NCBI GenBank assembly: GCA_030765145.1
Contig: JAVCDA010000082.1
Coordinates: 27,152-91,151 of the forward strand
Direction of reading: 5' to 3'
Source: Candidatus Saelkia tenebricola
GTDB taxonomy: Bacteria; Omnitrophota; Gorgyraeia; Kaelpiales; Kaelpiaceae
DNA: 64,000 nt
A program made the position numbers and the translations under genes. This document shows positions 13,537 through 50,736 of this stretch, piece by piece. The notes under the pieces were generated by a model. That model ran no database searches. It was given only the letters and a program-made list of their open reading frames with translations, and was not told where the DNA came from. The first letter of the stretch is position 1; each line of letters starts with the position of its first letter.

Positions 13537-14475
13537 TTAAAATTGCAATTTTAACATTCTTAATTGATTTAATGGATGCCTAAAAGAGAAATCTATTTCC
13601 CGCCAACAGGGCCTGATGCATCCTATACAACTACCGATTAATTCTTTTATTTCTTCGTTCTCATTACCTCTGAATTTATGACAGGGAGAAAAAGACCCTT
13701 CAGGCGAAATAGAAAAATAAAGCCTTCCTGCATAACAACGAGGATTCTTAAAAAAGCCTTTAAAGTAATCTTTAGAAGATTCTAAAAATCTATCACTATT
13801 AAATATCACCTTACGTTTCTTGGATAAAACTTCATAAATACTATCAATATCCCCATAATCTTTCTCTTGGAATTTAAACTCAGCTTCTGGATTTTCAATC
13901 GGTACCAATGAAACCATAAAATCATATCCCCTTGCAAATTCAACTATTTGGGGTAATTCTTTTAGATTTAACCGTGACACTACAACATTTAATAACTTAA
14001 TCCTGTTCTTAAAATACCGGCTAACCAATTCTATGGAATTTGAAACACTTTTTAAATAATCATTACCGGTTATAAAAGCATATTTTTCCTCATCAAGAGT
14101 GTCTAAAGATATAGATATTCCATCTAATCCGGCTTTATAGAACTCAACAATTAAATTTTCATTCAATAAAACTGCATTAGTAAGCAATCTTACTTTTATG
14201 CTTTCCTGCTCAAATATCTCTACAACCGTAACAATATCATCTCTCAACAAAGGCTCCCCCCCGCCTATACTGATGTATAAAATGCCCGAATCTGATAAAT
14301 TTTTTGCCATTTTCTTTATCTCGATCACAGAAAGCTCTTTTTCGAATTTATCCTCTGTAACTTTACACATTCGGCAAGCAAGATTACATCTGTGTGTAAT
14401 GCCATAATGGACATATACTGGTCTTGGTCTTCCTAAAACAAAAGATAAAAGACTATAAAATTGAGATATTTTCAT
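13537..14475 (-). CDS. radical SAM protein with a C-terminal SPASM-like Cys cluster
   Basis: CNLACRMC (Cx3Cx2C) near the N-terminus; C-terminal cysteines (SPCHKF...GSCIGCIRPC) resemble a SPASM/twitch auxiliary-cluster domain. Confidence 0.75.
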   Translation of the reverse strand: MKISQFYSLLSFVLGRPRPVYVHYGITHRCNLACRMCKVTEDKFEKELSVIEIKKMAKNLSDSGILYISIGGGEPLLRDDIVTVVEIFEQESIKVRLLTNAVLLNENLIVEFYKAGLDGISISLDTLDEEKYAFITGNDYLKSVSNSIELVSRYFKNRIKLLNVVVSRLNLKELPQIVEFARGYDFMVSLVPIENPEAEFKFQEKDYGDIDSIYEVLSKKRKVIFNSDRFLESSKDYFKGFFKNPRCYAGRLYFSISPEGSFSPCHKFRGNENEEIKELIGSCIGCIRPCWREIDFSFRHPLNQLRMLKLQF

Positions 14476-16049
14476 CTTTTAATACGCTTAAAAATTTTTA
14501 TCTTGCACAATCTATACGTTTCATAGTCCATTGTTATCTCTTTTATGAAAATAAATTCGCCTAACCTTTTTTTAAACTCATCCTGCAGTGCTAATAAATG
14601 CTCCTTTCGATAACCTGGAAAATCACTTTCAAAATCGCTCTCGATATAAAAAATAAAATCTGATTTGTCTATAATATCCGAGGGTAGCATTGCATTATCA
14701 ACTAAAGATAGCAAATCCTCGAATTGTACTCTGCTTGAGATTTTCTTCATTGCACATGCATATTTTATTACATCTATGATAAATGGATTAACGTCACATA
14801 AATTGTCTGGGACAACACCAATTTCTACAGCTTTATCCTTTTCTCTAACTATATTAATTATTTCATCAACATTTCTTATCTTCGACATAGGAAAGACTTT
14901 TCCAATAATAAAATAATTACTAACTGGATTCGACTTACTATGCTTTAATTCAACAAAAGAAACTATAGACAAACTACATGTGAGAATAAACAAAAATTTA
15001 ATGTTTACTTTTTCACCTACCTTGCCAATAGCATAGGTTATTAAAATAGCAACTCCGGGAAGCAAGGGAATAGTATGTTTTGGAAGTAATACTGCAGGGT
15101 GAAAAATCAAGATAAAAAAGGATATAACAACCCATAGAAAAATACATATTAATTCCTTCTTTTTAAACCTGATGATTTCCATAAACGCATAGAGAATACT
15201 TATCAAGCCAACCCAATAGTAGCAAGTGGAAATCTGTAAATATAGAACACCGTAATAAGGAATTAAAAATGTTTTAATCTCATAAATAAATTTAGAAAAT
15301 TGTGAACCTAAATTTTCCGATTGAACACAACGACTGAGATAACTAAAGAACAATTCCCGTGCTGGCTTATCAATCAAAACCGCTAAACACCATATTGCTG
15401 GAATAATAATCATTAACAAGCAAGCTATGAAAAAATTTCTATACGCCGGACTTGACCTTTTTATATTTAAAATATAAAAAAATACACCGGGTATTACAAA
15501 AAAGATAAAGTATGGATGAATTAAAAATCCGATTATATTTATTATTGCCCAAAATAAAGTATATTTTTTATCTTCAAAAAAACGCGAACTAATTAACAAA
15601 TAATGACTCAAAACAACAACTGCCGTTAAAGCAACGCTATGGTGACAAGCTCTTGAAAAACCTATTATTCCTGGAAAACCTAAAAGTATAATTACAGCAA
15701 TTAACCCGTATATCGGGGTTAATAATTTTCTACCCAAAAGATAGGTTGAAATAACAAGCATAATTACCCATAAAAAGTTAACCCCTGCCATTACATCCGT
15801 ATTTTCTCCAAAGAGAACGTAAAATGGAACTGGCAACAATCTTTGCAATGGCGGGATAACATTACTTCTGATTTTTTTAAAAAAATCAGAAGGGTCGCTT
15901 TTTAAAGCATGAAAATATTGGATACTGGCAGAGAAACTCCTATACTCATCATGAACAGGATAAAGCTCATCTTGTTTCAGAAAAATAAAGTGTAAAATCG
16001 CAATAACAACAATTAAAACTGCTAAGAAAATTACAGATTTCTTTTCCAA
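14472..16049 (-). CDS. polytopic membrane protein, GT-C fold-like (ArnT/PMT_2-like putative glycosyltransferase)
   Basis: At least 11 predicted TM helices; the first loop contains PVHDEYRS (DE motif in the position of the ArnT/PMT catalytic Asp-Glu); C-terminal soluble domain of about 150 aa. Confidence 0.5.
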   Translation of the reverse strand: MEKKSVIFLAVLIVVIAILHFIFLKQDELYPVHDEYRSFSASIQYFHALKSDPSDFFKKIRSNVIPPLQRLLPVPFYVLFGENTDVMAGVNFLWVIMLVISTYLLGRKLLTPIYGLIAVIILLGFPGIIGFSRACHHSVALTAVVVLSHYLLISSRFFEDKKYTLFWAIINIIGFLIHPYFIFFVIPGVFFYILNIKRSSPAYRNFFIACLLMIIIPAIWCLAVLIDKPARELFFSYLSRCVQSENLGSQFSKFIYEIKTFLIPYYGVLYLQISTCYYWVGLISILYAFMEIIRFKKKELICIFLWVVISFFILIFHPAVLLPKHTIPLLPGVAILITYAIGKVGEKVNIKFLFILTCSLSIVSFVELKHSKSNPVSNYFIIGKVFPMSKIRNVDEIINIVREKDKAVEIGVVPDNLCDVNPFIIDVIKYACAMKKISSRVQFEDLLSLVDNAMLPSDIIDKSDFIFYIESDFESDFPGYRKEHLLALQDEFKKRLGEFIFIKEITMDYETYRLCKIKIFKRIKR

Positions 16050-17398
16050 AATAATCTTAATCCTTTTTTTATGATTGCGATTCGGAAATAAAATCTTTTA
16101 TAGGCTAATCTTACTAACTGTTGTAACTCTTTTCTACTCAAATTCTCTTCCCAAAACGGAAGTTTGAAATCCTTAGATGGATATGTAATAAAATCTTGCC
16201 AATATTTTGAGGGGATTATTTTCTTATCTACCGCATCGAAATAAAGCTTTGTCTTAGGATATATAGCCAGGATGTTAAACATGCAATAATCGGGATCCAA
16301 TTTAAGGGCAAAATCAATTGTATCTAAAACCTGCACCTTGCTCTTTTCATAAGGAGTCCCGATCAAAAAATAGGCTACAGTTTCAATGCCGTGTTTCTTG
16401 CAAAGTTTAAAAGCATTTGTGATATCTTCAATGTTGGCATTTTTATTAAGCGAGTCTAATCCTTTATCACTGGAAGCCTCAACGCCAAAATGAATTCTGA
16501 CGCAACCACTTTCTCTTAAATCTCTTACCAATGCATCTGTTACCACATTAACCCGGCCTCTAAAACTCCAGGAGATGTTACAACTTTTAATCTGAGAAAT
16601 AAATTCCTGAACCCATTGGATATCAGTATTAAAAGTATCATCCACAAAATATATCTCCTCAAACCCCAGTCTTATACAAGCATCGATTTCCTTAAGTACA
16701 TTATCAACAGAACGTTTCCTGAATTTGAAATTTGGCACCAAACAAAAACTGCAATGAAAAGGGCACCCTCGTGAAGAAACCATGGTAGCAATTCTTCTTT
16801 TCCCGGATAAACGGTAGCTATACTTCTTCCCCAGCATTAAATCCCGGGCCGGAAACTCTATTTTATCTAAATCATCTATTACCGCAGGAGCATACTCCAC
16901 GGGATTTTTATTTTTGAAATAAACCCCTTTTATTTCATTTAGATTTTCTTTTCTCTTGAAATCTAAAACCAGCTCTGTAAATGCCTCTTCCCCGTCTCCT
17001 ACAGTAATTGAATCTACACCATTTAATCCAAGTGCCTCTTGAGGAAAAAGAGTAACATGCGGACCACCTAAATTAACATGAGTATGCAAGGAAATTTTCT
17101 TAATTATTTTAACAACTTTTGAAACAGTCAAAATATTATGGGTGATTGCTAATATTCCAACTATATCAGGCTTATAACTCTTAACATATCTCGAGAGACG
17201 TTTATAATTTATTTTGGCTTCCAAAGAATCCAAAAATTTCAGTTCGATTTCATCGCTATGCCTCTTAAGTGAACTGACTAAATAAAGAAGCCCGAGTTGA
17301 GGCAAGTTGCCAAGATTTTTATTTATCAATAAAGGCAATTCCGTTGTTATCATATCTTCACATGGCGGATTTAATAAAAGTACTTTAACTCGTTTCAT
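16031..17398 (-). CDS. B12-binding-domain radical SAM protein (class B)
   Basis: N-terminal Rossmann-like cobalamin-binding region (VLLLNPP...) followed by SSRGCPFHCSFC; 455 aa. Confidence 0.85.
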   Translation of the reverse strand: MKRVKVLLLNPPCEDMITTELPLLINKNLGNLPQLGLLYLVSSLKRHSDEIELKFLDSLEAKINYKRLSRYVKSYKPDIVGILAITHNILTVSKVVKIIKKISLHTHVNLGGPHVTLFPQEALGLNGVDSITVGDGEEAFTELVLDFKRKENLNEIKGVYFKNKNPVEYAPAVIDDLDKIEFPARDLMLGKKYSYRLSGKRRIATMVSSRGCPFHCSFCLVPNFKFRKRSVDNVLKEIDACIRLGFEEIYFVDDTFNTDIQWVQEFISQIKSCNISWSFRGRVNVVTDALVRDLRESGCVRIHFGVEASSDKGLDSLNKNANIEDITNAFKLCKKHGIETVAYFLIGTPYEKSKVQVLDTIDFALKLDPDYCMFNILAIYPKTKLYFDAVDKKIIPSKYWQDFITYPSKDFKLPFWEENLSRKELQQLVRLAYKRFYFRIAIIKKGLRLFWKRNL

Positions 17399-17447: not shown

Positions 17448-18869
17448 CTATGTTTTTCCTGTAAAATACCATTTCAAATACGCTCCTCCTGCAAAAAACC
17501 AAGAAGTTGCATCTGCACAAGATTTAAAGGAAATTAACCGTCTAAAAACATATTTTGGATTGAGAAAAAATTCTGCTGTCATTTTTTTTTGTAATATTAC
17601 TAAATCTTTTGCTGAGAAATGTTCAGTATGCCACTTTGGAATTCTTCCAAACATCTCAAAATCCTCCCAATCAATATCTTCATGCAACATATCTTTTGCT
17701 TTCATCATCTCATGTATAGCTGTGCCAGGAAAAGGAACAATAATTGCAACTGAAATTATCGTCCAGGGCAAAGAATGAATCATTTCTCTTGTCATTTCAA
17801 TATCTTCCATTGTCTCTGATGGATGTACCCCAATAATAAAATTACCTTCAATATGCTCAATTCCTGCCTCTTTTGCCCAATAAACGGCTTTTTCGATCTG
17901 GGCAAAAGAAAAATTCTTCTCGATTAAATCACGAATTCTTTGACTACCCGACTCTATTCCAAAAGTAACTTTTCTACAACCGCTTTTGACCATCATTTTA
18001 AGTAAATTTTTTGATATTTTATCTACTCTTGTTTCACAATTCCAGGATTTTACACCATGTGAAAGAAAAATATCACAAATCTCCAAAGACCTCTCTTCAT
18101 CTAATCCAAATGTATCATCCGCAACTACTATGTGTTTAACTTTGTTCTGCTCTATGAGCTGCTTAACTTCCTCTTCAATAAATTCTGTCTTTCTAAACCT
18201 AGCCTTTCTTCCAAATGCAGCGGAAACAGCACAAAAAGCACAACTAAATGGACATCCGCGAGAAGTAAAAAGCTCAGCTGAAGAAATTTTATTTGAAAAT
18301 CCCTTTGCTGAATACCCCGGTTGTTTCCTATTTTTAAAAAGATCCCTGGCAGGGAATGGGATCGAGTCTAAATCTTCAATTAAATCCCTCAAAGGATTTT
18401 GAATTATTTTCCCCTCGCTTCTGTAAACCAAACCTTTGATTTCTTCTGTCTTTTTTTCATTTTGAATACAATCACACAATTCAAGTAAAGTAACTTCTCC
18501 TTCTCCGTAAACAAGATAGTCAAAGTCAGAAAATTCATGAAGTGTCTGCTGAGGAAGACAATTAGCATGAGCTCCGCCAACAACAGTAGCTATCTTGGAA
18601 GAAAAAGATTTTACTACAGCACATATTTTGGCTCCGTTTTTTATTGTTGAAGTTGTACAGGAAATTCCTACAATCCCAGGAGAATTTGTTTTTAACTTTT
18701 CAAAAAAAGCAATCTCATTATACATTTCAATCTCATAATCAATAATCTCAACGTTATACCCGAATTTACGTATATATGCTGCTAAATAAGCAAGATTCAT
18801 CGGTTTAGTATGAGGTAAAAGACACAAATGCTGTAACAGGCTAGGCGGACGAATCAATAAAATATTCAC
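17448..18869 (-). CDS. B12-binding-domain radical SAM protein (class B)
   Basis: MNILLIRPP... B12-binding N-terminus followed by SRGCPFSCAFC; 473 aa. Confidence 0.85.
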   Translation of the reverse strand: MNILLIRPPSLLQHLCLLPHTKPMNLAYLAAYIRKFGYNVEIIDYEIEMYNEIAFFEKLKTNSPGIVGISCTTSTIKNGAKICAVVKSFSSKIATVVGGAHANCLPQQTLHEFSDFDYLVYGEGEVTLLELCDCIQNEKKTEEIKGLVYRSEGKIIQNPLRDLIEDLDSIPFPARDLFKNRKQPGYSAKGFSNKISSAELFTSRGCPFSCAFCAVSAAFGRKARFRKTEFIEEEVKQLIEQNKVKHIVVADDTFGLDEERSLEICDIFLSHGVKSWNCETRVDKISKNLLKMMVKSGCRKVTFGIESGSQRIRDLIEKNFSFAQIEKAVYWAKEAGIEHIEGNFIIGVHPSETMEDIEMTREMIHSLPWTIISVAIIVPFPGTAIHEMMKAKDMLHEDIDWEDFEMFGRIPKWHTEHFSAKDLVILQKKMTAEFFLNPKYVFRRLISFKSCADATSWFFAGGAYLKWYFTGKT

Positions 18870-20194
18870 CTAAGATACCTCACGCCATCTTTAAAATCAT
18901 CGATGATTTTACATCCCTCCTTAAGCTGATCATGAATCCATGAATATTTAAATCTACCATTTCGGCCGGACAATTCCAGATTACTGAAATTGTTTAAAAA
19001 ATCAAAAATTTTCTGGATATTTTTTTCACTTTCTATTTCTAAAACAGGATAGGCATATTCTAATCTTTCTACTGTACCGGATAATATTTCTCCCCTTGTT
19101 ATCCACCCTATTTCTATAAGCTTCAAACAAGCTATTTCTATTAGCTCTTCATCCTTCATTTGCCACAACTCGTCTGTTACCTGAGAAGGAATTTCTACCA
19201 TCAGTGAAGTCTTTTCTTCTGGAGACATAGCTTTGCTTCTGTTTTTGGGCTCAGAAATTCTCATAAAAGGAAATTCCAAAGAGGGAAAATAAACTGTACC
19301 ATGTTTAGTTACTATTTTTTTATCCAAAAATAAAACCACCAATATTACGCTGCGAAAATACAGTTTTCTGGCTAAAAGCAAAATTTCTTCCGGCGGAGAA
19401 GGCTCCAAAATCTGCAAAAACATATTGATGGGTATCGTACTTACTAACTTATCTATTTTTACTCCTTTTTTCCCATTAATTTCTACTTCTTGTATCCGTT
19501 TATAGTTATGTAATATTTTACTTACCTTAGCCTCTTTTAAAATATTTTTATTCCCGCAAAACTCTGCTATCTTTTCACAAATTGCACCAATTCCAACTCG
19601 CGGATAATAAAAAGTGCCTTCTAAATGTTGGGCAGAAACATTCTTTCTTAAAAAGCTATTTAAATTTAAACCTCCTAGTCTTTCCCCATGGACATTCAAC
19701 GAAAGCTTATCGCAAGATATACCCCATAATTTTTTAGAATAATTTAATAAAAAAAGCCCTGCAATAGTCTTTCCATATCGCTGTAAAACAAAATCTTCAA
19801 AATTATTACTGCTCTTCCTCAGCCTTGAAAACAAAACTTCAATTAAAGCTTTTCCAAACATAGTAAATCCTATATTTTTTATTAAATTTAGCGGCGAGAG
19901 TGGAAAATCGATTAATTTTCCTTGATGATAGATACAACTAGGAATAGTTATTTTTTCTAACTCTTCTCCTAACAAGCCTTTTGCCATTTCTGTGACATAA
20001 ACATCTTTATTGTGAAAACGATGTGCTCCTGAATCAAAAAGAAAATCTTGATGACTAAATGTTGTGCTCAAACCACCTACTCGATTTCTAGCCTCATAGA
20101 TTGTAAAAGACATGCCTTCTTTCTTCGCATAATAGCCGACAGCTAACCCCGCGGTACCCGCACCTAAAATAGTAATGTGTAAGGGCTTATTCAT
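18866..20194 (-). CDS. FAD-dependent oxidoreductase (amine oxidase / UDP-galactopyranose mutase-like fold)
   Basis: N-terminal dinucleotide-binding motif ILGAGTAGLAVGYYAKKEGMSFTIYEARNRVGGL; GAHRFH and YHQGKLIDFPL motifs resemble UGM / protoporphyrinogen-oxidase-like flavoenzymes. Confidence 0.7.
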   Translation of the reverse strand: MNKPLHITILGAGTAGLAVGYYAKKEGMSFTIYEARNRVGGLSTTFSHQDFLFDSGAHRFHNKDVYVTEMAKGLLGEELEKITIPSCIYHQGKLIDFPLSPLNLIKNIGFTMFGKALIEVLFSRLRKSSNNFEDFVLQRYGKTIAGLFLLNYSKKLWGISCDKLSLNVHGERLGGLNLNSFLRKNVSAQHLEGTFYYPRVGIGAICEKIAEFCGNKNILKEAKVSKILHNYKRIQEVEINGKKGVKIDKLVSTIPINMFLQILEPSPPEEILLLARKLYFRSVILVVLFLDKKIVTKHGTVYFPSLEFPFMRISEPKNRSKAMSPEEKTSLMVEIPSQVTDELWQMKDEELIEIACLKLIEIGWITRGEILSGTVERLEYAYPVLEIESEKNIQKIFDFLNNFSNLELSGRNGRFKYSWIHDQLKEGCKIIDDFKDGVRYLR

Positions 20195-20204
20195 ATATCT
20201 GCGA

Positions 20205-22109
20205 TTATTTTAAATATTGTTTAAAATCTTTATTTACGATATACATATCGTGCCAGATTAAAAACATCAATAATGCCCAGAGAAAACGCCCGTTATCCTG
20301 TTTTTTATTCAAGTGCTGCTTCCATTTAAACGCTATAAATTCAAAGTTAAAAAGACCTGTTTTTTCAATATTCTTTTTGGAAAAATATTTTTCCCCCAAA
20401 GTTTTAAACTCTTTTAAAAACCAAATTGAATAAGGCAATTCAATACCGAAATTCTTACGTCGGATAATCTCTTTTGGCAGGTAAGATTTCATTGCCTGCT
20501 TTTGAAAATATCGACGGCGGAAATAATAAATCTTATATTTTGTCGGAATTTTACTTGTAAAATCCACCACATTTCTATCCAGATACGGGAACCTTGCCTC
20601 AACAGAATGCGCCATTAACATACGGTCATTCTTCAGCATTAAATTTCCAATAAGAAAATATTTGAAATCAATCAACCCGATTTTATTAAGCTCATCAGCA
20701 AAATTGTTATTTTCAAATAACTCTCTAAATAGCTCTTCGCTTTCTTTAAACCGATGATGAAGTAAAAAAGATGCTTTCTCCTTTGTATTTAAAACATGGC
20801 GCCAAAAATAATGAGCAGCAGGCACATCTTTTTCACATCCTTCAGTAAAACGTTTGGCCAAAAAATCAAAACTCAACTTACTATATGAAACAGGCAAAAG
20901 GGAACAGCATTCTTGAACAAGTCGTCTTAAAAACACGGGAGTAAAATGACGATATGATTTGGCAATCTTATAGGCAAGATGCGTTTCATATGCATTAGAC
21001 ACTTCATCCCCGCCTTCTCCTGATAAAATCACTTTTACGTATTTTTTAGCTTCTTTGCTTAATAAGAAATTAGGAATTGTTGAACCATCATTAATTGGCT
21101 CATCCAAATAAGCCATATGTTTAAAAATGTTTTCTAAAATATCATTTGGATTGACAATAATTTCATGGTGAATTGAACCGGCGTAGGATGCCATTATTTT
21201 TTGGTATTTAGATTCATCGAAACTGGGATTGTTTATTCTTAAAGAAAACGTATGCAGCTTACTACTGTGCCCTAACATTTTAGCTAAACCTAAGATCGTA
21301 CTGCTATCCATCCCCCCGGAAAGAGTTACTCCTACCGGACAATCAGCAATGAGATTATTCTCTACAGACTGTACCATAACATTAAAAAAACCATCAATCG
21401 CTTCTTTCTTACTCATTGTATAATCAGACTGAAAATTAATTTTAAAATATTCACGCAAAATAACCGTCTGTTCTTTAAAATCAACCTCGAGTAAATGGCC
21501 GCCATCAATTTCCTTAATTCCAGAAAATGCAGTCATAGTCCCAGGAATATAACCTAAAGAAAAATAATGATATATTGCTTCATGGTTTACGCGAGGCGTA
21601 AACCAATCCAGCGCAAAAAAAGATTTTATTTCTGAAGAAAAGTATACACATTCGCCTTTTTGCATAAAAAATAAGGGCCTCGTGCCATAATGATCCCGTA
21701 CAATGTATGCTTTCCCTTCTTTTTTATCATAAAGGCAAAACGCAAACATCCCTGATAATTTGTGAATAAAATCAATACCTATTTGATCATAGAGATAAAG
21801 AAGAACCTCTGTATCTGAGCAGGTAATAAGTTCTTCTTTAAACTGCTTCCTGAGTTCCTGAAAATTAGTCACTTCTCCGTTATAGGTTAACCAAACATTC
21901 CCCTTTGCATTACTCATCGGCATATTGGACCTATCATCAGGATCAATCACCTTAAGCCTGGAATTTCCTAAAAAACATCTTCCATCATGAAAGCTTCCCT
22001 GATAATCCGGACCTCGATGATTTAAAAGCAAACTCATTTCATTGCCTTCTTTGTAATCATGCTCATTTAAGTTATTCTTTAAACTTAAAATCCCGCTAAT
22101 GCCACACAT
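20205..22109 (-). CDS. asnB: asparagine synthetase B-type glutamine-dependent amidotransferase
   Basis: N-terminal MCGI nucleophile Cys2 of the Ntn glutaminase domain; SGGMDSS PP-loop in the synthetase domain; 634 aa. Confidence 0.9.
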   Translation of the reverse strand: MCGISGILSLKNNLNEHDYKEGNEMSLLLNHRGPDYQGSFHDGRCFLGNSRLKVIDPDDRSNMPMSNAKGNVWLTYNGEVTNFQELRKQFKEELITCSDTEVLLYLYDQIGIDFIHKLSGMFAFCLYDKKEGKAYIVRDHYGTRPLFFMQKGECVYFSSEIKSFFALDWFTPRVNHEAIYHYFSLGYIPGTMTAFSGIKEIDGGHLLEVDFKEQTVILREYFKINFQSDYTMSKKEAIDGFFNVMVQSVENNLIADCPVGVTLSGGMDSSTILGLAKMLGHSSKLHTFSLRINNPSFDESKYQKIMASYAGSIHHEIIVNPNDILENIFKHMAYLDEPINDGSTIPNFLLSKEAKKYVKVILSGEGGDEVSNAYETHLAYKIAKSYRHFTPVFLRRLVQECCSLLPVSYSKLSFDFLAKRFTEGCEKDVPAAHYFWRHVLNTKEKASFLLHHRFKESEELFRELFENNNFADELNKIGLIDFKYFLIGNLMLKNDRMLMAHSVEARFPYLDRNVVDFTSKIPTKYKIYYFRRRYFQKQAMKSYLPKEIIRRKNFGIELPYSIWFLKEFKTLGEKYFSKKNIEKTGLFNFEFIAFKWKQHLNKKQDNGRFLWALLMFLIWHDMYIVNKDFKQYLK

Positions 22110-40775: not shown

Positions 40776-40809
40776 ACTAAACCAGGATTTTTCTTTTGTA
40801 ATCGAACTT

Positions 40810-43770: not shown

Positions 43771-45608
43771 ATGTTGTGTATTTCATAAATAATAATTTCA
43801 TCATTAGTGGAACAATCCTCCTCAGGATTTACTAAAATCTGATTAAGTATTAATCTAATCTCATCATAGTTTTCTTCGCTCGGCAAATCTTTTTTGTGTA
43901 CTAGAATGTACTTGTAATTATATTTCATAAGTATATTTATACTTTGCTGTAATTTTTGATTATCTATAACGCAGTTAGAAACAGAAATCTTCTCGTTGCT
44001 TAAATCCTCGAGTATATTCAGCAAATAATTATTTTCTATATCAGGGGGATAATTTCGAGAGACAATATGTGCCGGGACATGACCATTTAACCTTTTTTTA
44101 TTATGTATTACCTGATAATAACTATATTTATAACTTTTTTGTGGCAATCTATCTAATATATTCGAATTTCTTGTAAAGGGGACTTCAATAATAGCAAAAT
44201 CAGCACAATTCTGGGCAAATTTTAAATAAACTTCAGGCACAACTATAGGATTATGCGGTAATACAAAATGAAACTGCGTTGAAAAAATAAACAATAAAAA
44301 CACAATAACAGTAAACAATACCTTCTGTCTTTGCTGTAACTTATATTTATTAAAAATTACATCCATTCCATGCCCCGATAGCATGGCCAGACTTAGGATA
44401 GAAATTATACAAAATCTCAAGGGAAATTGAACCCTTCCCAATCCTGGAATAAAACGCGAACACACCGTATAAGGCATTATGTTGATCGTTTTTACTAATA
44501 AACGCTCACCTATTATCAAGCAAGGACCAAAAGCTAAAGACGTAAAAAATAAAAAACAGAAAATGTAGAACAAAACCTGTCTGTTTTTAAACCTCAATAA
44601 CGCTATTCCTGATAAAAAAAATGGAATAATCCAAAGCTTAAAGTAAAAAGGCCTATGCCAATCCACTTTTGAATCATGTATAAGGCTTTTAGCATCAAGT
44701 GAAGATTCAAATTTAATCTGGAACCAGGCTCCATAATAGTTTTCTTTTACATTGGAATATAGTGCTTCCAACATAACATTTTCATTATTAATTTCTGAAA
44801 TATTGTTTAAAAATTTTCTATCTATTTCTGATATTTGTTCCTCCTGAGAGCTATAATCTATACTTCTATATACTAAAAAAAGAAAGCTTCCGATTATTAA
44901 AACCCATAAAATTACTTTAGGAATAAAAATAGATGGCTTATTTAAAACACCCTTATAGTCCAAATTAAATACAAAATACACGATTGTAAAAAGTAATAAT
45001 ATGTAGCCAACATACCAGCACCATGCCGCTGTCATAATAAACCAGAAACAGGAAAGCAGGGTATATTTTACTGTCTTTGATTCAAACATTTTGCATAAAT
45101 AAAGTATATATAAAAACCCCCATCCTAAATTAACAAACTCTAAAAACCCATGTTTTATATGAAAATTAATAAGGGGATTAAATGCTAGCATGTACCCGGT
45201 AAAAAAACCTATCAATTTACTCTTGAATAAATAACTGGTTAATAAATATCCTCCCAAACAACTAAAAAGTAGTGAAAATAAAATTGTAAGATTATATGTA
45301 ATGTTATGATTATTAAATACAATCTGGATAGGAATTGTAAAATACGACAGTAGAAAACCACTATTGCCATTCCATATATCGATACCATCCGGATAGCAAA
45401 TATATTCGGTAAAATAGAACCCTTTGTGCAAATCTATTAAAGATTTCTTTGCCCACCAAAAATCCCAGTAGTGAATGTATTTATCCACAACATTTAACCC
45501 AATACCCTCTTTGTCAAAATAGAAAGTCAAAGGAACAGTTGCAGTTGCAATTAAAATAAGGGTTATATAAGCAAAAACTATTACTATACTTGTGAATTTG
45601 GCTTTCAT
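43767..45608 (-). CDS. polytopic membrane protein, paralog family (putative GT-C-like)
   Basis: N-terminal motif HYWDFWW...ICYPDGIDIW; multi-TM; C-terminal soluble domain; 4-nt overlaps with both neighbours. Confidence 0.5.
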   Translation of the reverse strand: MKAKFTSIVIVFAYITLILIATATVPLTFYFDKEGIGLNVVDKYIHYWDFWWAKKSLIDLHKGFYFTEYICYPDGIDIWNGNSGFLLSYFTIPIQIVFNNHNITYNLTILFSLLFSCLGGYLLTSYLFKSKLIGFFTGYMLAFNPLINFHIKHGFLEFVNLGWGFLYILYLCKMFESKTVKYTLLSCFWFIMTAAWCWYVGYILLLFTIVYFVFNLDYKGVLNKPSIFIPKVILWVLIIGSFLFLVYRSIDYSSQEEQISEIDRKFLNNISEINNENVMLEALYSNVKENYYGAWFQIKFESSLDAKSLIHDSKVDWHRPFYFKLWIIPFFLSGIALLRFKNRQVLFYIFCFLFFTSLAFGPCLIIGERLLVKTINIMPYTVCSRFIPGLGRVQFPLRFCIISILSLAMLSGHGMDVIFNKYKLQQRQKVLFTVIVFLLFIFSTQFHFVLPHNPIVVPEVYLKFAQNCADFAIIEVPFTRNSNILDRLPQKSYKYSYYQVIHNKKRLNGHVPAHIVSRNYPPDIENNYLLNILEDLSNEKISVSNCVIDNQKLQQSINILMKYNYKYILVHKKDLPSEENYDEIRLILNQILVNPEEDCSTNDEIIIYEIHNI

Positions 45609-47299
45609 TTTAACTTATACATGCTTATTCGTTCATCGGAGTTATCTATTAAAATACAGCTTTCTAACAACAACCGTTCAAGCGCTTTTTTTGTACCTTC
45701 GTTTAAAAACTCATTATGAAGTAAAAGATAGAGAAATCCGTCTTTTTTAAGCTCAGAGCAAGATTGAACTAAAATTTCGATTTCGGATTTAGACATATAT
45801 ATAACGTTACCTAGATTGAACAAAATTAAATTTAAAAAAGGATTTTCTTCTATGTAATCCCAATGCTTTATATTTTTGGCACTGGGAGAAAGATAACTTA
45901 CCGCATAAGGAATAGATTTCTCATGTAATGTTTGGTAATACATATACTTGCCACAAAGTAGATGATTGTAAAGATCAAAAGGAATATCAATAATTGCATA
46001 ATCATTTTTATCTTTGGCCAATTCCTGATAAATGGCTGGTATCTGCATATCGGTTACTGGTAAAGGATACGGCCCGGGAGATACCAATAAAACCTCAGCA
46101 ATTATTGTTATTGCAGTGATTGAAACTAATAATTTATTACGCCTATCTCTATTTATTATTTCCACAAGAAAGAGCATTCCATAACCTGATATTACAGCAA
46201 TAATCAATAAGCATACAGCAAATGCACGATATGTGTTGATAACAGGTAAAAATTTACTGGGCAAATAAAAATTATAAAAAACATGCTCAAATAATGAAAG
46301 ACGACAACCCAATGTTAAAATCAAAAAAAATATCCCTAAAAAACACCATTTTACTACCTCTTTTCTATGCCTTGAAACAACTGCAAGCAAAGATAACGAT
46401 AAACAACTGAATCCAATGTAAGTAGATTTCATAAAATGCCTTACTGTTGAATCAAAAACTAATTTCCCGGGCGTAAAAAAATCTTTTATATCTACTATAA
46501 AATCAAGCTGACTTTTATAAATATCTATGGAGGTTTTAAAAAAAATGAACCGCGTAATAAGAACATACGCCATAGGGGCAATAAAAATTGCATATAAAAC
46601 TAATACCCAAAAACAAGATAATAACGTTTTTTTATAACAGACAAATTTAGCTCTCATAACAATAATTATAAAAATATAAAGCAGAGTAAAGAATAAAAGA
46701 TAAAGCCCGTAATACCAACAAGATAACGTGGTAAATAACAACAACAACCCCGACATAAAAATATATCTTCTACGGTTTGTATTTATTAATTTTAAAAACA
46801 TAAGGATGTACAGGGGTAAAAACACCAAGTTAATGGTTTCCAAAGCCCCATTATAAATTTGTCCAAACACATATGCATTTATTCCATATATTATTCCGGA
46901 TATAAAACTTGCATATCCATTATGTGTTAAATATTTTGCGAGAAAAAACATGGCAACACAATTTAAAAAAATTAGCATCATAACCAAAAAATTATAACTA
47001 GTAGTAATGTTGAATAGAAAAGTAAACGGAATTGCTAAAAAATCCGTAAACAGAATCGGGATATGACGATGAACATTAACTCCGGCAGGATAAAAAATTT
47101 TATCTGTATAAAAATCTGCTTTTAAAATTTGATTAAAAGCTGTCTGATCCCACCATATATGCCAACAACTGACCCAAACATCATTAAACTTATCTCCCAA
47201 CACATGAGTCGATATGTCAGGAAACAGAAAATAAAATATTCCTATCACAATTAATAAAAATAAAACCACCGCAATCCAATTGCTATTTATTTTCATCAT
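45605..47299 (-). CDS. polytopic membrane protein, paralog family (putative GT-C-like)
   Basis: N-terminal motif DVWVSCWHIWWDQ...IFYPAGVNVH; multi-TM; 564 aa. Confidence 0.5.
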   Translation of the reverse strand: MMKINSNWIAVVLFLLIVIGIFYFLFPDISTHVLGDKFNDVWVSCWHIWWDQTAFNQILKADFYTDKIFYPAGVNVHRHIPILFTDFLAIPFTFLFNITTSYNFLVMMLIFLNCVAMFFLAKYLTHNGYASFISGIIYGINAYVFGQIYNGALETINLVFLPLYILMFLKLINTNRRRYIFMSGLLLLFTTLSCWYYGLYLLFFTLLYIFIIIVMRAKFVCYKKTLLSCFWVLVLYAIFIAPMAYVLITRFIFFKTSIDIYKSQLDFIVDIKDFFTPGKLVFDSTVRHFMKSTYIGFSCLSLSLLAVVSRHRKEVVKWCFLGIFFLILTLGCRLSLFEHVFYNFYLPSKFLPVINTYRAFAVCLLIIAVISGYGMLFLVEIINRDRRNKLLVSITAITIIAEVLLVSPGPYPLPVTDMQIPAIYQELAKDKNDYAIIDIPFDLYNHLLCGKYMYYQTLHEKSIPYAVSYLSPSAKNIKHWDYIEENPFLNLILFNLGNVIYMSKSEIEILVQSCSELKKDGFLYLLLHNEFLNEGTKKALERLLLESCILIDNSDERISMYKLK

Positions 47300-47337: not shown

Positions 47338-48873
47338 TTATTGAGTAATCAAAGATTTAAAATTTAACCACCTTTTAATTATCTTCAAATTTATTTCGCC
47401 TTTTAATAAACCTGAAGACACAATGAAAATCATCTTTAATAAATTAACAAACTGTGCAAAACATTTAATAATGTATGGATTTTTTTTCAAATATTGACTT
47501 TTAGAAACAGCTTTTAAAAATTCAATAGGAATAAATCTTTTAGAAGCTAAAACCAATAGACTAGTCCAGAATATATCTTCCTTAGACCTTTTAAAGTTTA
47601 AATCTACTCTATATTGATAAAATATCTTCTTAATAACTTCAAGCTGCTCGCTATACTTAATGTAGCCATCCGATATTAATTTTTTTGCCAAAGGGGTATT
47701 AGGATAAATGGTTAAAGAAAATAAATACAGCTCATATGGCCGGGGCAAGGAACAAATTAGTTTAAATAATTCATTTTTATCATTAGAAGTAGATACCGGG
47801 TCATCTAAAATCACCTGGTAACAACTTTTTAACCCGAGGGACCTGAGAACATTGGCAGCAGCAATCACTTGATCATTATTCTGATGCCGGCTATAAAGAA
47901 CTTTGTTTATTCTTTCTGTATTCTGAACTCCGACTAATACTGTATCTAAACCTGCTTTTTTTAATAACAATAAACTCTCTTTGTTAATTACTGATGGATG
48001 GGTTAAAATATCAAACGGTAACGCAATATGTTTTTTATATTCTTTACTGAAATTTCGAAGCCAATTTTTATCTGCAATAAATAGTTCGTCATCAAACCTT
48101 ATCCTCTTTAATTTGGGGAAAAATTTCTTTGCCTCCAATAGCTCCTGAATTATATTATCTACACTTCGACAGCGATAAAGATAGCTCCCGTAATTTTTAT
48201 ATATATCTTTCAATAAAGAAATCATGCAAAAAGAACACTGATACAGACATCCTCTGGAGGCATTAATCAGATAGATTCTGTCATTTAAACAAGGGTCCCC
48301 TTTTGCTACAGACTTTTTATCTATAAAATATTTATCTTGACTCATGAAATCTCTAAACGGGATGGAATTTAAATCGGCAACCACCGGTCGAAGCGGATTT
48401 CTAGAAATAATTTTATCTTTGTTCCGCCATATATTTAAAATGTTATCCAGTCTTTCATTTTGAAAAAATTTATTTACAAATTCAATGAATGCCTCTTCTG
48501 CCTCTCCTATGCATATAAAATCAACTACCTTGATACATTCTTCAGGCATAGAAGTTGGATGCATTCCACCCCAAATAACAGGTAAGTTTAATTCTTCCTT
48601 TATCTGGTTTGTAATATTGCTCGCTATATTCATAAACCCGGACGTTCTTACACTCACCCCTAAAAGATCCGCATCATATTGTTTTAAAATTTTTATGACA
48701 CTATTAATCTCATATTCATTAGGTAGTTCAAGACAATTATTTTTCCAATCTTTAAGATAAATTTCTATCACCCGATAACCATTTTCCCTTAAAATAGAAG
48801 ACAAAACTCTTAAACCATTATTTTCAACAGTATAAAGTGACATTAAACCAACTGTTTGATTCTTCTTATTCAT
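47338..48873 (-). CDS. B12-binding-domain radical SAM protein (class B)
   Basis: N-terminal B12-binding-like domain; SRGCLYQCSFC; 511 aa. Confidence 0.85.
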   Translation of the reverse strand: MNKKNQTVGLMSLYTVENNGLRVLSSILRENGYRVIEIYLKDWKNNCLELPNEYEINSVIKILKQYDADLLGVSVRTSGFMNIASNITNQIKEELNLPVIWGGMHPTSMPEECIKVVDFICIGEAEEAFIEFVNKFFQNERLDNILNIWRNKDKIISRNPLRPVVADLNSIPFRDFMSQDKYFIDKKSVAKGDPCLNDRIYLINASRGCLYQCSFCMISLLKDIYKNYGSYLYRCRSVDNIIQELLEAKKFFPKLKRIRFDDELFIADKNWLRNFSKEYKKHIALPFDILTHPSVINKESLLLLKKAGLDTVLVGVQNTERINKVLYSRHQNNDQVIAAANVLRSLGLKSCYQVILDDPVSTSNDKNELFKLICSLPRPYELYLFSLTIYPNTPLAKKLISDGYIKYSEQLEVIKKIFYQYRVDLNFKRSKEDIFWTSLLVLASKRFIPIEFLKAVSKSQYLKKNPYIIKCFAQFVNLLKMIFIVSSGLLKGEINLKIIKRWLNFKSLITQ

Positions 48874-48896: not shown

Positions 48897-49919
48897 TTAT
48901 AAAAATTTATAAATTTTACTTCCCAGCTTGATGCTTTTCTGCATACACCCGGAACAATTTTGAATTTGCCTACAATGTTTTTCCATTCCTTTGCTGAACC
49001 AAATATCTTTAAAGGTTTCTTCAAGCAGATTTGAAATCTTTTGCTGCCTCAAACCACAGGTTACAAGATCTCCATTGGGTAAAATATACATCAAGTCTCT
49101 CAGTTCTCCGCAGTCAAATTGAATTCTATCAGCTGATTCATGTTTCAAAAATGTTTTATTCAAAAAATTGCTCACAAATGATTCTACGGGTTTTCTTCTG
49201 GGTTTCTGGAGATACATGAATCTTTTATACTTTTTTAAAACATTATCCTCAATGGCCATGACGTTTCTGCGGGAACTAAAATCTGCATTTTCCAAAAAAG
49301 GTTTAATAGGATACCCCATGATTAAACCTATATTGTGCTTTATACAAATCCCAAATATTTCCTCTAAGAATGGCATTGTCTCATCTCGTAAGCCATAATT
49401 TATACCCAGATGAAAAGAACGTTTTTTTTTCAAATCTATCAAAGCCAAAATTGTCTCTTGAACTTTTTCATAACACCCATCAACACCTCTAATTTTATCG
49501 TGAATATCGTTCATTCCATCAAGAGAAATCCTTAAGCTTAATCCAGGAAAATGAACCTGTTTTACAGTTTCGATTATTCTTTCTGTATATGTACCATTGG
49601 TTGTTATCTGAATAATGTAAGGATTAATCTTGCTTCTAATTTCAGTAATTATACCCACAATATCATCTCTGATAAACGGTTCTCCTCCTGTGATTTTAAT
49701 TACATCTAAAAAATTAAGTTGATCTATAATTCTAAGAAGAGAAGCTGTATCTAATTCAGACGTTTCATCTTTTTGCCAGTTATTGCATTCTCTACATCGC
49801 AAATTACACCGCCAAGTAATAAAAAAGTGAGCAAAACGTGGATAAGTTCGAATTCTCAATAAATTAGAAAAATTATTTTTTAAAATATTAGAATATGCCT
49901 TAAACCTAGTGCTTTTCAT
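48897..49919 (-). CDS. radical SAM / SPASM-domain protein
   Basis: TWRCNLRCREC; C-terminal CGELRDLMYILPNGDLVTCG...CSGCMQ Cys cluster; 340 aa. Confidence 0.8.
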   Translation of the reverse strand: MKSTRFKAYSNILKNNFSNLLRIRTYPRFAHFFITWRCNLRCRECNNWQKDETSELDTASLLRIIDQLNFLDVIKITGGEPFIRDDIVGIITEIRSKINPYIIQITTNGTYTERIIETVKQVHFPGLSLRISLDGMNDIHDKIRGVDGCYEKVQETILALIDLKKKRSFHLGINYGLRDETMPFLEEIFGICIKHNIGLIMGYPIKPFLENADFSSRRNVMAIEDNVLKKYKRFMYLQKPRRKPVESFVSNFLNKTFLKHESADRIQFDCGELRDLMYILPNGDLVTCGLRQQKISNLLEETFKDIWFSKGMEKHCRQIQNCSGCMQKSIKLGSKIYKFL

Positions 49920-50736
49920 TATATTCCAAATAAGTCTTATTACATGCCATCAATTTTTCTTTAGCAGATTCCAGAGGAATAGAACTGTTTTCAAAATAAT
50001 CGTTAATTATTTTATTCATTATCGGAATTTTCATTTTTATAAAATCAAACACTTTTTCATTATCATAAATTGGATGAATACCAAAAAACACATCCTTCCA
50101 ATGTTGCAGAAATCCTGGAATACATACTGGTTGCACTCCAAGAGTCCCTTTGCCGACTACTAATCCTGGCCATATCCCCCATTGCCTAAGCTGTTCCTTT
50201 TCATCCGGTTTTAAAATATTAAGATCGAGCAAGGGGGTAGAAAACATGATGCCAAAAGATGCATAAAATTCTCTCATCGCATTGACTGTAACAGGAATTG
50301 ACATTACAGCAAACTCATGCCCCCCTACTGAACTACAGAGAAAACATTTTGGAATAGAATGAATCAAATTATAGATAATCATATGAGTATGTACCGAAAG
50401 AATGCATCCTAAACACCAGATAAAGTTACTCCGATATCTTTTATAATCCTCCTCTAGAGAACTTACCAAAATTTGATTAAAAGTGTCTTTGATATTAATA
50501 AATTGATGATAAACTCTTTTCTCCCCTAACAACATTTCTATGTCTCGAATATGCCTGTTGCGAAACCCAGGGAAAAGATTGCCGTAACCGTGATCAGCTG
50601 TGACAAGATGGACATCTCTTTTATATTCTAATCCTAAATAACATGCAACAAATGTAGAGTCAATTCCGCCAGAAAAACAGACAGAAAAATCACTCTCTTT
50701 TTGATAGAAATTAGAACCTTGGGTTGGTATTAACAT
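49906..50736 (-). CDS. PP-loop (N-type ATP pyrophosphatase) family protein
   Basis: SVCFSGGIDSTFVACYLG = SGGxDS PP-loop; no glutaminase domain; 276 aa; first gene (most upstream) of the minus-strand island. Confidence 0.6.
   Translation of the reverse strand: MLIPTQGSNFYQKESDFSVCFSGGIDSTFVACYLGLEYKRDVHLVTADHGYGNLFPGFRNRHIRDIEMLLGEKRVYHQFINIKDTFNQILVSSLEEDYKRYRSNFIWCLGCILSVHTHMIIYNLIHSIPKCFLCSSVGGHEFAVMSIPVTVNAMREFYASFGIMFSTPLLDLNILKPDEKEQLRQWGIWPGLVVGKGTLGVQPVCIPGFLQHWKDVFFGIHPIYDNEKVFDFIKMKIPIMNKIINDYFENSSIPLESAKEKLMACNKTYLEYNEKH

Follow-up and report, generated by a model that had tools for sequence, protein, structure and literature searches.

Lipid tails and lipid-bound sugar head groups are known to be tailored by radical S-adenosylmethionine (rSAM) enzymes, namely Tes, Mss, Gms, Grs, Gmm and Cds, and further precedents are the hopanoid enzymes HpnH, HpnJ, HpnP and HpnR (PMC13459092, PMC11214058). 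Twitch/SPASM rSAM enzymes, B12-binding rSAM enzymes and FAD enzymes cross-link, cyclise, methylate and ring-contract archaeal tetraethers and hopanoids (PMC13459092, PMC11214058). A GGR gene lies near tes in Methanosarcina, and Tes homologues of Koribacter and Solibacter, which are 40-42% identical to archaeal Tes, have been proposed to serve the synthesis of brGDGTs (branched glycerol dialkyl glycerol tetraethers; PMC8941075). For the anammox bacteria a ladderane cluster has been predicted in which B12-binding rSAM enzymes and FAD enzymes of the phytoene-desaturase/amine-oxidase type are proposed to cyclise lipids anaerobically (PMC13459092). Most of what is known of lipid tailoring by rSAM enzymes concerns the tetraethers of archaea and the hopanoids of bacteria. 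How bacteria make the branched and bridged tetraethers that serve as palaeoclimate proxies is incompletely known, as are the makers of these lipids in anoxic settings. Here we describe a gene cluster of Candidatus Saelkia tenebricola, an Omnitrophota metagenome-assembled genome (MAG) from anoxic Ace Lake (Antarctica). It occupies positions 13537-50736 of the window, the stretch of 64,000 nucleotides that was analysed; window numbering is used throughout, and genes are named by their left coordinate. At its heart lies an eight-gene cassette, with a Tes-like protein (31237) as anchor, that recurs in uncultured anaerobes. Our favoured reading of the cluster, to which we give a probability of about 0.45, is that it tailors a membrane lipid or glycolipid (or a lipid-bound head group) anaerobically, after which the product is glycosylated in the periplasm.

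The Omnitrophota are, to our knowledge, ultra-small bacteria that form a phylum without pure cultures. The paper that describes Ca. Saelkia mentions neither the rSAM genes nor the cluster, and full-text literature searches returned no description of this gene combination. The region holds 27 open reading frames (ORFs) of 198 aa or more. The minus strand carries 25 of them and the plus strand two (22250-24076 and 24063-25865), and most overlap or abut. This agrees with a preliminary description of the same DNA, made from the letters alone, which spoke of about 27 genes almost all on one strand. Most of its inventory was borne out as well. All six genes that it took for B12-binding, class-B rSAM enzymes exceed the Pfam gathering scores of both PF02310 (B12-binding) and PF04055 (Radical_SAM), and PF04055 is passed by the four further rSAM proteins. 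The motif CX3CX2C occurs exactly once in each of these ten, at the expected place (residues 203-212 in the class-B six). Three of the four had been called SPASM-like; the Pfam SPASM domain is reached by 48897 only, whereas 13537 (C283-x2-C286-x3-C290) and 32553 (C308-x2-C311-x3-C315) carry twitch/SPASM-like cysteine motifs. The three paralogous FAD proteins resembling UDP-galactopyranose mutase (UGM) and amine oxidases were found as described, as were seven GT-C-like membrane proteins. The supposed U32 pair proved to be one clear member and a partner that is only remotely U32-like. The DegT aminotransferase and AsnB are clear and the PP-loop motif is present, but the GNAT and LolA calls are weak. 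A density of ten rSAM genes in 27 is far above chance, and the combination recurs in unrelated MAGs.

A pattern scan for the 31237 family in 185,579 species genomes, in which divergent members could be missed, gave 52 loci (labelled L001 and so on). All 52 come from a MAG or a single-cell genome and none from an isolate, the cultured brGDGT-producing Acidobacteria included. Likewise, none of the 120 homologues of 31237 listed (37-78% identity) bears the name of a cultured organism, and those that are named are all MAGs. At least seven phylum-level labels are represented among the carriers, which include Omnitrophota, Thermoanaerobaculales/Holophagae/Acidobacteriota, Myxococcales/Kofleriaceae, Elusimicrobia, Kiritimatiellia, Gemmatimonadota and Deltaproteobacteria; the additional automated labels 'Planctomycetia' and 'Rickettsiales' were judged untrustworthy. 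Orthologues of all proteins of the region were counted by tblastn in place of naive ORF calling, which produces shadow ORFs in the loci of high GC content; the loci searched were 34, non-redundant, each 15 kb or longer and anchored on the 31237 family. The counts yield a cassette of eight genes (31237, 32553, 13537, 36120, 26474, 27901, 16031 and 34778; counts in Table 1), in which 32553 mostly adjoins the Tes-like gene. Exactly these eight are found in six loci (L026, L030, L034, L036, L038 and L041), which lack the U32, DegT and sugar genes. That the cassette occurs intact without sugar genes suggests that its substrate is something ubiquitous in cells, a membrane lipid for example. AsnB, two of the FAD proteins (FAD442 and FAD454), the LolA-like protein, the SPASM rSAM protein and most of the GT-C paralogues are rare or absent in the other loci. 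The region is composite: next to a cassette that is conserved across phyla stand GT-C, AsnB and FAD genes that are specific to the lineage.

The protein of the anchor gene 31237 is 100% identical to the deposited one, which begins seven residues later than the listed ORF. It scores 170.5 bits with the NCBIfam Tes model (NF045702), below the cut-off of 450, and 204.8 bits with TrsS, above its Tes score yet under the cut-off of 490. A TrsS identity was rejected on account of this cut-off and because TrsS comes from an unrelated selenoprotein/organometallic context. In sequence the match to the GDGT-MAS structure (PDB 7tol) has an E-value of 5e-51 and is confined to residues 10-259. An AlphaFold2 (AF2) model, built from 21 sequences (pLDDT 89.7) and compared by Foldseek, matches 7tom and 7tol over 488-498 columns (E 7e-32, 27% identity, TM-score 0.78 for the query and 0.71 for the target), and the next fold match is MoaA, with a TM-score of 0.38. 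The rubredoxin-like, rSAM-core and C-terminal domains of Tes are shared by the model, in which the four-domain shape is whole. Among the 21 family members C19, C22 and C43 are invariant and H46 is found in at least 90% (a rubredoxin-like Cys3His site), and the rSAM cysteines C88, C92 and C95 are invariant; members of the family also have a hydrophobic segment near residues 350-390. Beyond the two cysteine sites only C251, C307, H312, C400 and C413 are conserved, which would provide ligands for at most one auxiliary cluster. Tes has two (PMC13459092), and the ligands of its auxiliary [4Fe-4S] clusters are an N-terminal Cys3His and a C-terminal Cys3Met. The homologues of Koribacter and Solibacter are far nearer to Tes than is the 31237 family, which, judged by sequence and model, is a distinct branch of the Tes superfamily and not a Tes equivalog.

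Four considerations lead us to favour a lipid: the lipid-coupling relative of the anchor, the classes to which its companion enzymes belong, the complete cassette without sugar genes, and the membrane and lipid genes in the neighbourhood. In Tes, the sole characterised relative of 31237, hydrophobic pockets bind two membrane lipids, whose unactivated terminal carbons the enzyme joins. The preliminary description had already suggested anaerobic tailoring of a membrane glycoconjugate or lipid; this is strengthened by the Tes-like fold, by the GT-C fold and by the redox chemistry of the cluster (rSAM, U32), which to judge from the enzyme families is entirely oxygen-independent, and it is not proven. 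Starting from the gene content, the two folds, the conservation and modularity among MAGs that bear seven or more phylum-level labels, and the finding that no characterised equivalog matches, we propose the following substrate, reactions, order of steps and cellular destination. Judged by its likeness to archaeal Tes, Gms, Grs and Gmm and to the hopanoid enzymes HpnH, HpnJ, HpnP and HpnR, the cassette would work in the cytoplasm, and its targets would be unactivated carbons in a hydrocarbon embedded in the membrane or in the head group. It would be expected to couple or cross-link carbon to carbon, to C-methylate, to form or contract rings, and to desaturate or saturate. An optional module would follow, in which the U32 protein and its partner (30204 and 29416) may install a hydroxyl group without oxygen, which would then be oxidised, transaminated by the DegT protein (33553) and N-acylated by the GNAT-like protein (25899). 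AsnB and the PP-loop enzyme, lineage-specific in this genome, would amidate the product; also lineage-specific are two of the B12-binding rSAM enzymes, the SPASM rSAM protein, the two UGM-like FAD proteins and the seven GT-C proteins. The last are expected to glycosylate the product, or an envelope acceptor, at the periplasmic face from polyprenyl-phosphate sugars. Finally, the secreted, weakly LolA-like protein (37911), whose N-terminus is hydrophobic and which has no counterpart in other loci, may carry a hydrophobic product outward.

That the module of U32, partner, DegT and GNAT is optional to the cassette follows from the counts. All eight GNAT-bearing loci also have U32, and DegT is present in nine of the 13 loci with U32, a co-occurrence that fits a module leading from hydroxylation to amination. 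UbiU is the best NCBIfam model for 30204 (102 bits against a cut-off of 440), which has eight invariant cysteines and is a candidate subunit of an oxygen-independent hydroxylase. Its partner 29416 matches no Pfam family even at an E-value of 5, but its family (a 15-sequence alignment, with Cys34, 195, 213 and 217 conserved) aligns to the U32 family with an hhalign probability of 70.6% (E 3.9e-5). Of the 13 loci with U32, 11 also carry the partner, which follows the U32 gene immediately in every case with a listed gene order. A two-subunit enzyme of the UbiU/UbiV kind would fit these data and is unproven.

NCBIfam models were run on 26 of the 27 ORFs of the region and on the divergent gene 50857; the remaining one, 24063, shares 66% amino acid identity with its tandem neighbour 22250 and was covered by Pfam only. 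None of the class-B proteins met the equivalog cut-off of HpnJ, BchE, HpnR, PhpK, TIGR04072, BzaD, AprD4 or the MCR glutamine methyltransferase. HpnJ ranks first among the profiles for five of these proteins; its highest score (36120, Table 1) is well under half its cut-off, and the other models score lower still relative to theirs. BchE comes first or second for four. The best-conserved B12-binding member of the cassette is 26474 (44-53% identity across loci), and its best match in the PDB is AprD4 (E 1.9e-26). A hydrophobic tail as in 47338 is present in 67% of the members of that family, and C-terminal tails of this kind are also frequent in the family of 27901; like the hydrophobic segment of the Tes-like family, these tails speak for a lipid.

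The three FAD proteins share 26-31% identity in BLAST comparisons and match Amino_oxidase, NAD_binding_8 and PRK07208-type models, whereas the UGM model TIGR00031 gives 40-72 bits against a cut-off of 304. FAD454 aligns over its full length (residues 5-447) to the eukaryote-type UGM of T. cruzi (PDB 4dsg; E 8.7e-33). FAD446, the member that belongs to the cassette and whose gene usually adjoins the Tes-like gene, resembles UGM mainly in the FAD-binding N-terminus (E 1e-9). For the PP-loop protein 49906 weak matches to Asn_synthase, QueC and LarE were obtained, and relatives of it occur in L001, L016 and L027.

An all-against-all BLAST comparison divides the GT-C-like proteins into two families, one of PMT_2 proteins (14472 and 40810) and one of five DUF2079-like proteins (38931, 22250, 24063, 43767 and 45605). 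The AF2 model of 38931 (20 sequences, pLDDT 81, pTM 0.86) was matched by Foldseek to STT3A, PglB, AglB, DPY19, AftD, AftA and ArnT, with E-values from 5e-8 to 6e-3 and TM-scores of 0.36-0.50, and Asp65, near its N-terminus, is invariant in the 20 sequences. The count of seven GT-C-like proteins stands because a GT-C fold is predicted for 38931, four proteins are its paralogues according to BLAST, and two exceed the PMT_2 gathering score. A profile of the DUF2079-like family found no match among the PDB sequences, and a literature search on DUF2079 found none. Within the tandem pair 22250/24063 there are 300-nt stretches of 80-82% nucleotide identity. The pair runs against the strand of the rest of the region; a comparable opposite-strand pair (600 and 604 aa) is located beside the U32 partner gene in L060. 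Relatives of 45605 occur in L001 and L060. In several phylum-level groups (L001, L003 (PMT_2), L005, L027, L040, L053, L059 (YfhO) and L060) the cassette is accompanied by polytopic proteins of 450-700 aa whose size and number of transmembrane segments are GT-C-like, and a crude count based on ORFs and hydropathy finds polytopic proteins with 8-10 transmembrane segments in 20 of the 34 long loci.

The claim that the ensemble maps onto no recognised pathway also withstood the profile check. The sole NCBIfam equivalog cut-off to be passed is that of a generic asparagine synthase (TIGR01536), and in the Pfam and NCBIfam scans the region lacks a squalene-hopene cyclase, fab/ACP, PKS/NRPS, a nucleotide-sugar synthase, a flippase and an ABC exporter, as had been stated before; for six ORFs, which match no Pfam family, these absence calls are only as good as the profile libraries. 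Equivalogs of hopanoid, ladderane, BchE, phosphonate, peptide, UbiU and UGM pathways were considered, the peptides being ribosomally synthesised and post-translationally modified (RiPPs), and all of them matched below the NCBIfam cut-offs. The loci of Elusimicrobia and Myxococcales that combine a nitrogenase paralogue with rSAM genes (Méheust et al.) are different, since nothing Nif-like is present here.

Table 1. Genes of the cluster in Ca. Saelkia tenebricola. Scores given as 'x vs y' are bit scores against the NCBIfam or Pfam cut-off; the last column gives the number of loci, of 34, with an orthologue.
Position	Strand	Product	Evidence	Loci
13537..14475	-	rSAM protein, 312 aa, MoaA-like core, C-terminal CX2CX3C; cassette	PF04055 88 bits; NCBIfam all below cut-off	22
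14472..16049	-	PMT_2 GT-C protein, 525 aa, about 9 transmembrane segments	PF13231 30.7 vs 26.1	
16031..17398	-	Class-B rSAM enzyme, 455 aa; cassette	PF02310 + PF04055; best NCBIfam BchE, HpnJ, far below cut-off	23
17448..18869	-	Class-B rSAM enzyme, 473 aa; lineage-variable paralogue	PF02310 + PF04055; HpnJ 179 vs 578	3
18866..20194	-	FAD protein FAD442, 442 aa, PRK07208/UGM-like	Amino_oxidase, NAD_binding_8, GLF; NF005548 275 vs 389	
20205..22109	-	AsnB, glutamine-hydrolysing asparagine-synthase-type amidotransferase, 634 aa	TIGR01536 407 vs 267; PF00733 263 bits	
22250..24076	+	DUF2079-like paralogue, 608 aa, first of tandem pair	BLAST; no Pfam match of its own	
24063..25865	+	DUF2079-like paralogue, 600 aa	BLAST; nucleotide repeats D1/D2	
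25899..26495	-	Small GNAT-like protein, 198 aa (weak call)	Acetyltransf_1 E 0.26; RimI E 5e-4	8
26474..27904	-	Class-B rSAM enzyme, 476 aa; cassette	PF02310 90 bits, PF04055 87 bits	23
27901..29415	-	Class-B rSAM enzyme, 504 aa; cassette; paralogue of 47338	Pfam/NCBIfam and BLAST	19
29416..30219	-	U32-partner protein, 267 aa, remotely U32-like	hhalign; no Pfam match	11
30204..31259	-	Peptidase-U32-family protein, 351 aa, UbiU/TrhP-like	PF01136 103 bits	13
31237..32577	-	Zinc-ribbon rSAM protein, 446 aa, Tes/GDGT-MAS superfamily; cassette anchor	PF23545 + PF04055	
32553..33572	-	rSAM protein, 339 aa, SPASM/twitch-like C-terminus; cassette	PF04055 102 bits; weak DUF3463; PTO1314 family 111 vs 306	22
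33553..34770	-	DegT/DnrJ/EryC1-type pyridoxal-phosphate aminotransferase, 405 aa	PF01041 203 bits; no NCBIfam equivalog	11
34778..36118	-	FAD oxidoreductase FAD446, 446 aa; cassette	Amino_oxidase, NAD_binding_8	25
36120..37538	-	Class-B rSAM enzyme, 472 aa; cassette	HpnJ 214 vs 578; BchE 200 vs 481	15
37911..38765	-	Secreted protein, 284 aa, N-terminal signal/anchor	Weak lolA E 8e-4; GerS-related E 3e-4	
38931..40862	-	DUF2079 GT-C-fold protein (modelled), 643 aa	PF09852 34.5 bits; weak AftD GT-C match; AF2/Foldseek	
40810..42342	-	PMT_2 GT-C protein, 510 aa	PF13231 59 bits; weak Agl23 and mannosyltransferase matches	
42406..43770	-	FAD protein FAD454, 454 aa, PRK07208-type	NF005548 347 vs 389	
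43767..45608	-	DUF2079-like paralogue, 613 aa	BLAST; no Pfam/NCBIfam match	
45605..47299	-	DUF2079-like paralogue, 564 aa	27% identity over 601 aa to 38931, E 1.6e-37	
47338..48873	-	Class-B rSAM enzyme, 511 aa, hydrophobic C-terminal tail	PF02310 + PF04055; 34% identical to 27901	
48897..49919	-	rSAM/SPASM protein, 340 aa	PF04055 64 bits; PF13186 (SPASM) 26.9 vs 21.5	
49906..50736	-	PP-loop ATP-pyrophosphatase-like protein, 276 aa; opens the long minus-strand run	SGGIDS at residue 22	

Several observations weigh against a lipid as the substrate. The low Tes score of 31237 (170 against 450) and its complement of at most one auxiliary cluster, compared with two in Tes, mean that its chemistry may differ. 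AprD4 and HpnJ, the closest relatives of the B12-binding enzymes by structure or profile, act on sugars and not on hydrocarbon tails, and no gene for lipid synthesis (fab, ACP, pls or prenyl synthase) is found in the region. Loci for surface polysaccharides usually draw on DegT, GNAT, AsnB, PP-loop, UGM-like FAD and GT-C proteins, and genes for GT2, GT4 and a Polysacc_synt (Wzx-type) flippase flank the core in L059 and L060. To this may be added that the LolA and GNAT assignments are weak, and that the three sub-operons of the window are not linked by anything to one common product.

Some of these observations underlie the main rival, which we consider somewhat unlikely: the product would be a polyprenyl-phosphate-linked surface glycan, be it a core or O-antigen-like part of the lipopolysaccharide (LPS) or a protein or cell-wall glycan, with sugars modified by rSAM enzymes. 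These would then perform C-methylation, deoxygenation or the formation of carbocycles or higher-carbon sugars, the UGM-like proteins would provide furanoses, DegT, GNAT, AsnB and the PP-loop protein acetamido or amidated sugars, and the GT-C proteins would polymerise or transfer the glycan in the periplasm. The seven GT-C proteins, with a modelled member resembling oligosaccharyltransferases, AftD and ArnT, suit such a role, as do the clear DegT and AsnB proteins with the PP-loop and GNAT proteins, the UGM-like FAD454, the closeness of 26474 to AprD4, a sugar 3'-dehydratase, and the rank of HpnJ as top profile. Genes for lipid A and the core, found at 54.3-62.9 kb as the preliminary description had noted, begin 3.5 kb from the cluster with three unrelated genes between; the link to LPS is one of proximity alone and is repeated in a single other locus, L001, where a lipid A acyltransferase lies near the cluster. 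Pfam scans of the window, however, detect no nucleotide-sugar synthase, no GT2 that would form polyprenyl-phosphate sugar donors and no flippase, and the cassette is complete in the six loci without glycan genes. Moreover, the predicted fold of the anchor is that of a lipid-binding enzyme, and the cassette FAD protein is UGM-like in its FAD-binding N-terminus only.

An alternative that we regard as improbable is that two or three independent envelope loci (the rSAM cassette, GT-C/FAD glycosylation genes and AsnB) are merely juxtaposed and share their strand by accident. It would explain why the GT-C paralogues, AsnB, FAD442, FAD454, the LolA-like protein and the SPASM rSAM protein are mostly missing from other loci. 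A gap of 372 bp (37539-37910) interrupts the minus-strand run, the plus-strand pair (22250-25865) is convergent, and the cassette genes stand in two places (13537/16031 and 25899-37538). Yet the cassette members 13537 and 16031 are mixed in with PMT_2, AsnB and FAD genes, the cassette has polytopic GT-C-like proteins next to it in unrelated phyla as well, and most genes of the region overlap or abut in the manner of an operon.

Very improbable, in our view, is a prenylated aromatic, quinone-like or tetrapyrrole-type cofactor, whose ring would be hydroxylated by the U32 protein in the manner of UbiU/UbiV and methylated or cyclised by the B12-binding rSAM enzymes in the manner of BchE. UbiU and BchE are indeed the leading profiles for 30204 and for four of the B12-binding enzymes, and a UbiA prenyltransferase gene is located beside the cassette in L003, but the scores of both profiles are far below their cut-offs, chorismate, futalosine, Ubi, Men and tetrapyrrole genes are all missing from the window, U32 occurs in only 13 of the 34 cassette loci, and the seven GT-C enzymes would be left without a role. 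A proteusin-like RiPP with many C-methylations or cross-links is scarcely credible: several B12-binding and SPASM rSAM proteins are present, AsnB-like proteins can be lasso or macrolactam cyclases (weak sub-threshold matches) and ApyD and rSAM_ocin_1 are among the sub-threshold matches, but the intergenic gaps, the 372-bp gap included, hold no precursor-like ORF, Pfam scans show no protease, transporter, RiPP-recognition or YcaO/LanM-type genes, TIGR03975 stays far below its cut-off, and a peptide of 29-32 aa found in three other loci is a plain transmembrane helix that is absent from the window.

The cluster is bordered by tRNA-Glu(CTC) (13405-13480) at the low-coordinate end and by a divergent gap at about 50.8 kb at the other. 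The low-coordinate flank contains genes for GH57 and GH94 proteins, an NfeD/FloA operon and a DsbD/thioredoxin pair; tRNA-Ala(GGC) at 6133-6204 (+) extends over the GTG that is listed as the start of the NfeD-like ORF 6147-7613 (+), so that the true start of this gene must be further downstream. In the high-coordinate flank an RsmB-like methyltransferase, MPG, GT4, GT9, an LpxL-Elm1 fusion, LpxK, KdtA and a XerC-like recombinase are encoded. Its LPS genes include two unusual fusions, a GT4-GT9 (heptosyltransferase-like) protein of 712 aa (56515-58653, -) and a protein of 643 aa in which a lipid A late acyltransferase is joined to an ELM1-like domain (58650-60581, -). The gene divergent from the region, 50857-52746 (+), encodes a protein of 629 aa in which one N-terminal transmembrane segment is followed by a long, apparently beta-rich part. 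It has no Pfam match even at an E-value of 5 and a faint GspN-like match at its C-terminus (E 0.025). With a single transmembrane segment it is not a GT-C protein; from these features it could be an envelope protein that spans the periplasm.

The word 'island', if meant for a mobile element, has to be withdrawn. Scans for repeats and genes turned up neither a direct repeat derived from the tRNA-Glu end nor an integrase within or next to the region; the sole tyrosine recombinase (62845-63717) sits 12 kb away, and the sole long repeats are the tandem GT-C genes. The GC content falls from 0.35-0.37 in the flanks to 0.29-0.34 in the region, a mild dip. A mobile integrative island was ruled out on these grounds. 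An Rfam scan returned three tRNAs and no riboswitches, and a scan for promoters and terminators gave the same counts as in shuffled sequence, so that operon boundaries could not be drawn.

Some genes recur beside the cassette elsewhere. A membrane methyltransferase resembling PEMT, ICMT and ERG4-24 was found in nine loci, a PP-loop protein in seven, an aldo-keto reductase with ferredoxin domains in three, and subunits of 2-oxoacid:ferredoxin oxidoreductase in four to five. The last could supply low-potential electrons for the rSAM enzymes or acyl-CoA primers; their genes are not in the window. In several Omnitrophota loci (L001 5193-7490, L014 82-684 and L016 1151-2902) the cassette has POR/IOR-like alpha and gamma genes at its upstream end or close to it. 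Two enoyl-CoA hydratases and a KASIII/chalcone-synthase-like enzyme are encoded near the cassette in L005. In L060 a trio of lipid-modification genes (amine-oxidase, DUF1365 and cyclopropane-fatty-acid-synthase-like; 2662-5897, +) lies 3 kb upstream of the core of FAD, Tes-like, U32 and partner genes. The hydrophobic peptide of 29-32 aa (MKE[FL]G[LM]Y...) is encoded at L005 12851-12949 (-), L042 7617-7706 (+) and L062 12914-13012 (+); it adjoins the PEMT-like gene in L005 and L062 and has the appearance of a single-transmembrane micro-protein. L030, from a high-GC MAG labelled Rickettsiales, contains a frame of about 3,470 codons (11376-21794, +) that starts in the 3' part of the Tes-like match and may be a giant gene or a shadow-ORF artefact. 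Finally, the Tes-like gene stands alone, without the cassette, in L020, L023, L024, L058 and L063 (42-49% identical to 31237). In L058 and L063 it is positioned between GGDEF/HDOD signalling genes and a ClC channel gene, and the family thus has at least two genomic contexts.

A conserved, modular cassette with a Tes-like anchor that was found only in uncultured anaerobes is a defined target for study. A more far-reaching proposal, which we regard as doubtful, is that the cassette is the machinery for an orphan class of heavily C-methylated, cross-linked or cyclised membrane-spanning lipids, or of glycolipids derived from them, in uncultured anaerobes. If so, the proposed makers would include Omnitrophota, Thermoanaerobaculia/Holophagae and Myxococcota-like lineages, the cassette would mark anaerobic producers of sedimentary biomarkers, for example overly branched or bridged lipids of the brGDGT type, and U32, DegT and GNAT would form a new oxygen-independent route of lipid amination. 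The coupling of a U32 hydroxylase to a sugar-type aminotransferase and the expansion of GT-C proteins could reveal new envelope chemistry of the Omnitrophota. If the product is a glycan instead, ten rSAM genes in a single surface-polysaccharide locus would be unusual, none such being described in the literature covered.

Compared with described systems, the cluster resembles several in part. In the Arn, AftA-D and Emb systems a DegT aminotransferase and PMT_2/ArnT-like and AftD-like GT-C enzymes are likewise found, with lipid A in the vicinity, and furanose-based cell-wall synthesis also pairs UGM flavoenzymes with GT-C enzymes. Unlike the Arn and mycobacterial systems, however, the cluster has no ArnA, ArnC, ArnD, DprE, UbiA or donor-forming GT2, the ArnB model gives 98 bits against 631, and its ten rSAM proteins have no counterpart there. 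With UbiU/UbiV, TrhP and RlhA it shares a U32 protein with invariant cysteines, a smaller adjacent partner and an anaerobic host, although the partner is only remotely U32-like and the cluster contains no ubiquinone genes. The hpn pathway is alike in that a membrane lipid is elaborated by rSAM enzymes independently of oxygen and aminated later; HpnP and HpnR, which are rSAM enzymes with a B12 domain, methylate the lipid, and HpnJ contracts the sugar head group to a cyclitol. HpnO is a class-III aminotransferase, whereas that of the cluster is of the DegT type, and a squalene-hopene cyclase, HpnG, HpnI and HpnK are lacking, the hpn models scoring far below their cut-offs. The combination of B12-binding rSAM and FAD enzymes is shared with the predicted ladderane cluster, which differs in having amxACP, FabF and FabZ and belongs to a different phylum; TIGR04072 gives 62-138 bits against 360.

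A likeness exists, too, to archaeal Tes, Gms, GrsA/B, Gmm and Cds and to the proposed bacterial Tes and Mss systems: the anchor shares with Tes a fold (here predicted) of zinc-ribbon/rubredoxin-like, rSAM and C-terminal domains. Gms, Grs and Gmm belong to the same enzyme classes as the twitch/SPASM and B12-binding rSAM proteins of the cassette (PMC13459092, PMC11214058), and the FAD enzyme encoded beside 31237 may be likened to the GGR near tes in Methanosarcina. Unlike the Tes systems, the cluster is bacterial and is linked to U32, DegT and GT-C genes. Anaerobic tailoring of envelope lipids and glycoconjugates by rSAM enzymes is already known as a kind; the ensemble described here and its Tes-like anchor family are new forms of it.

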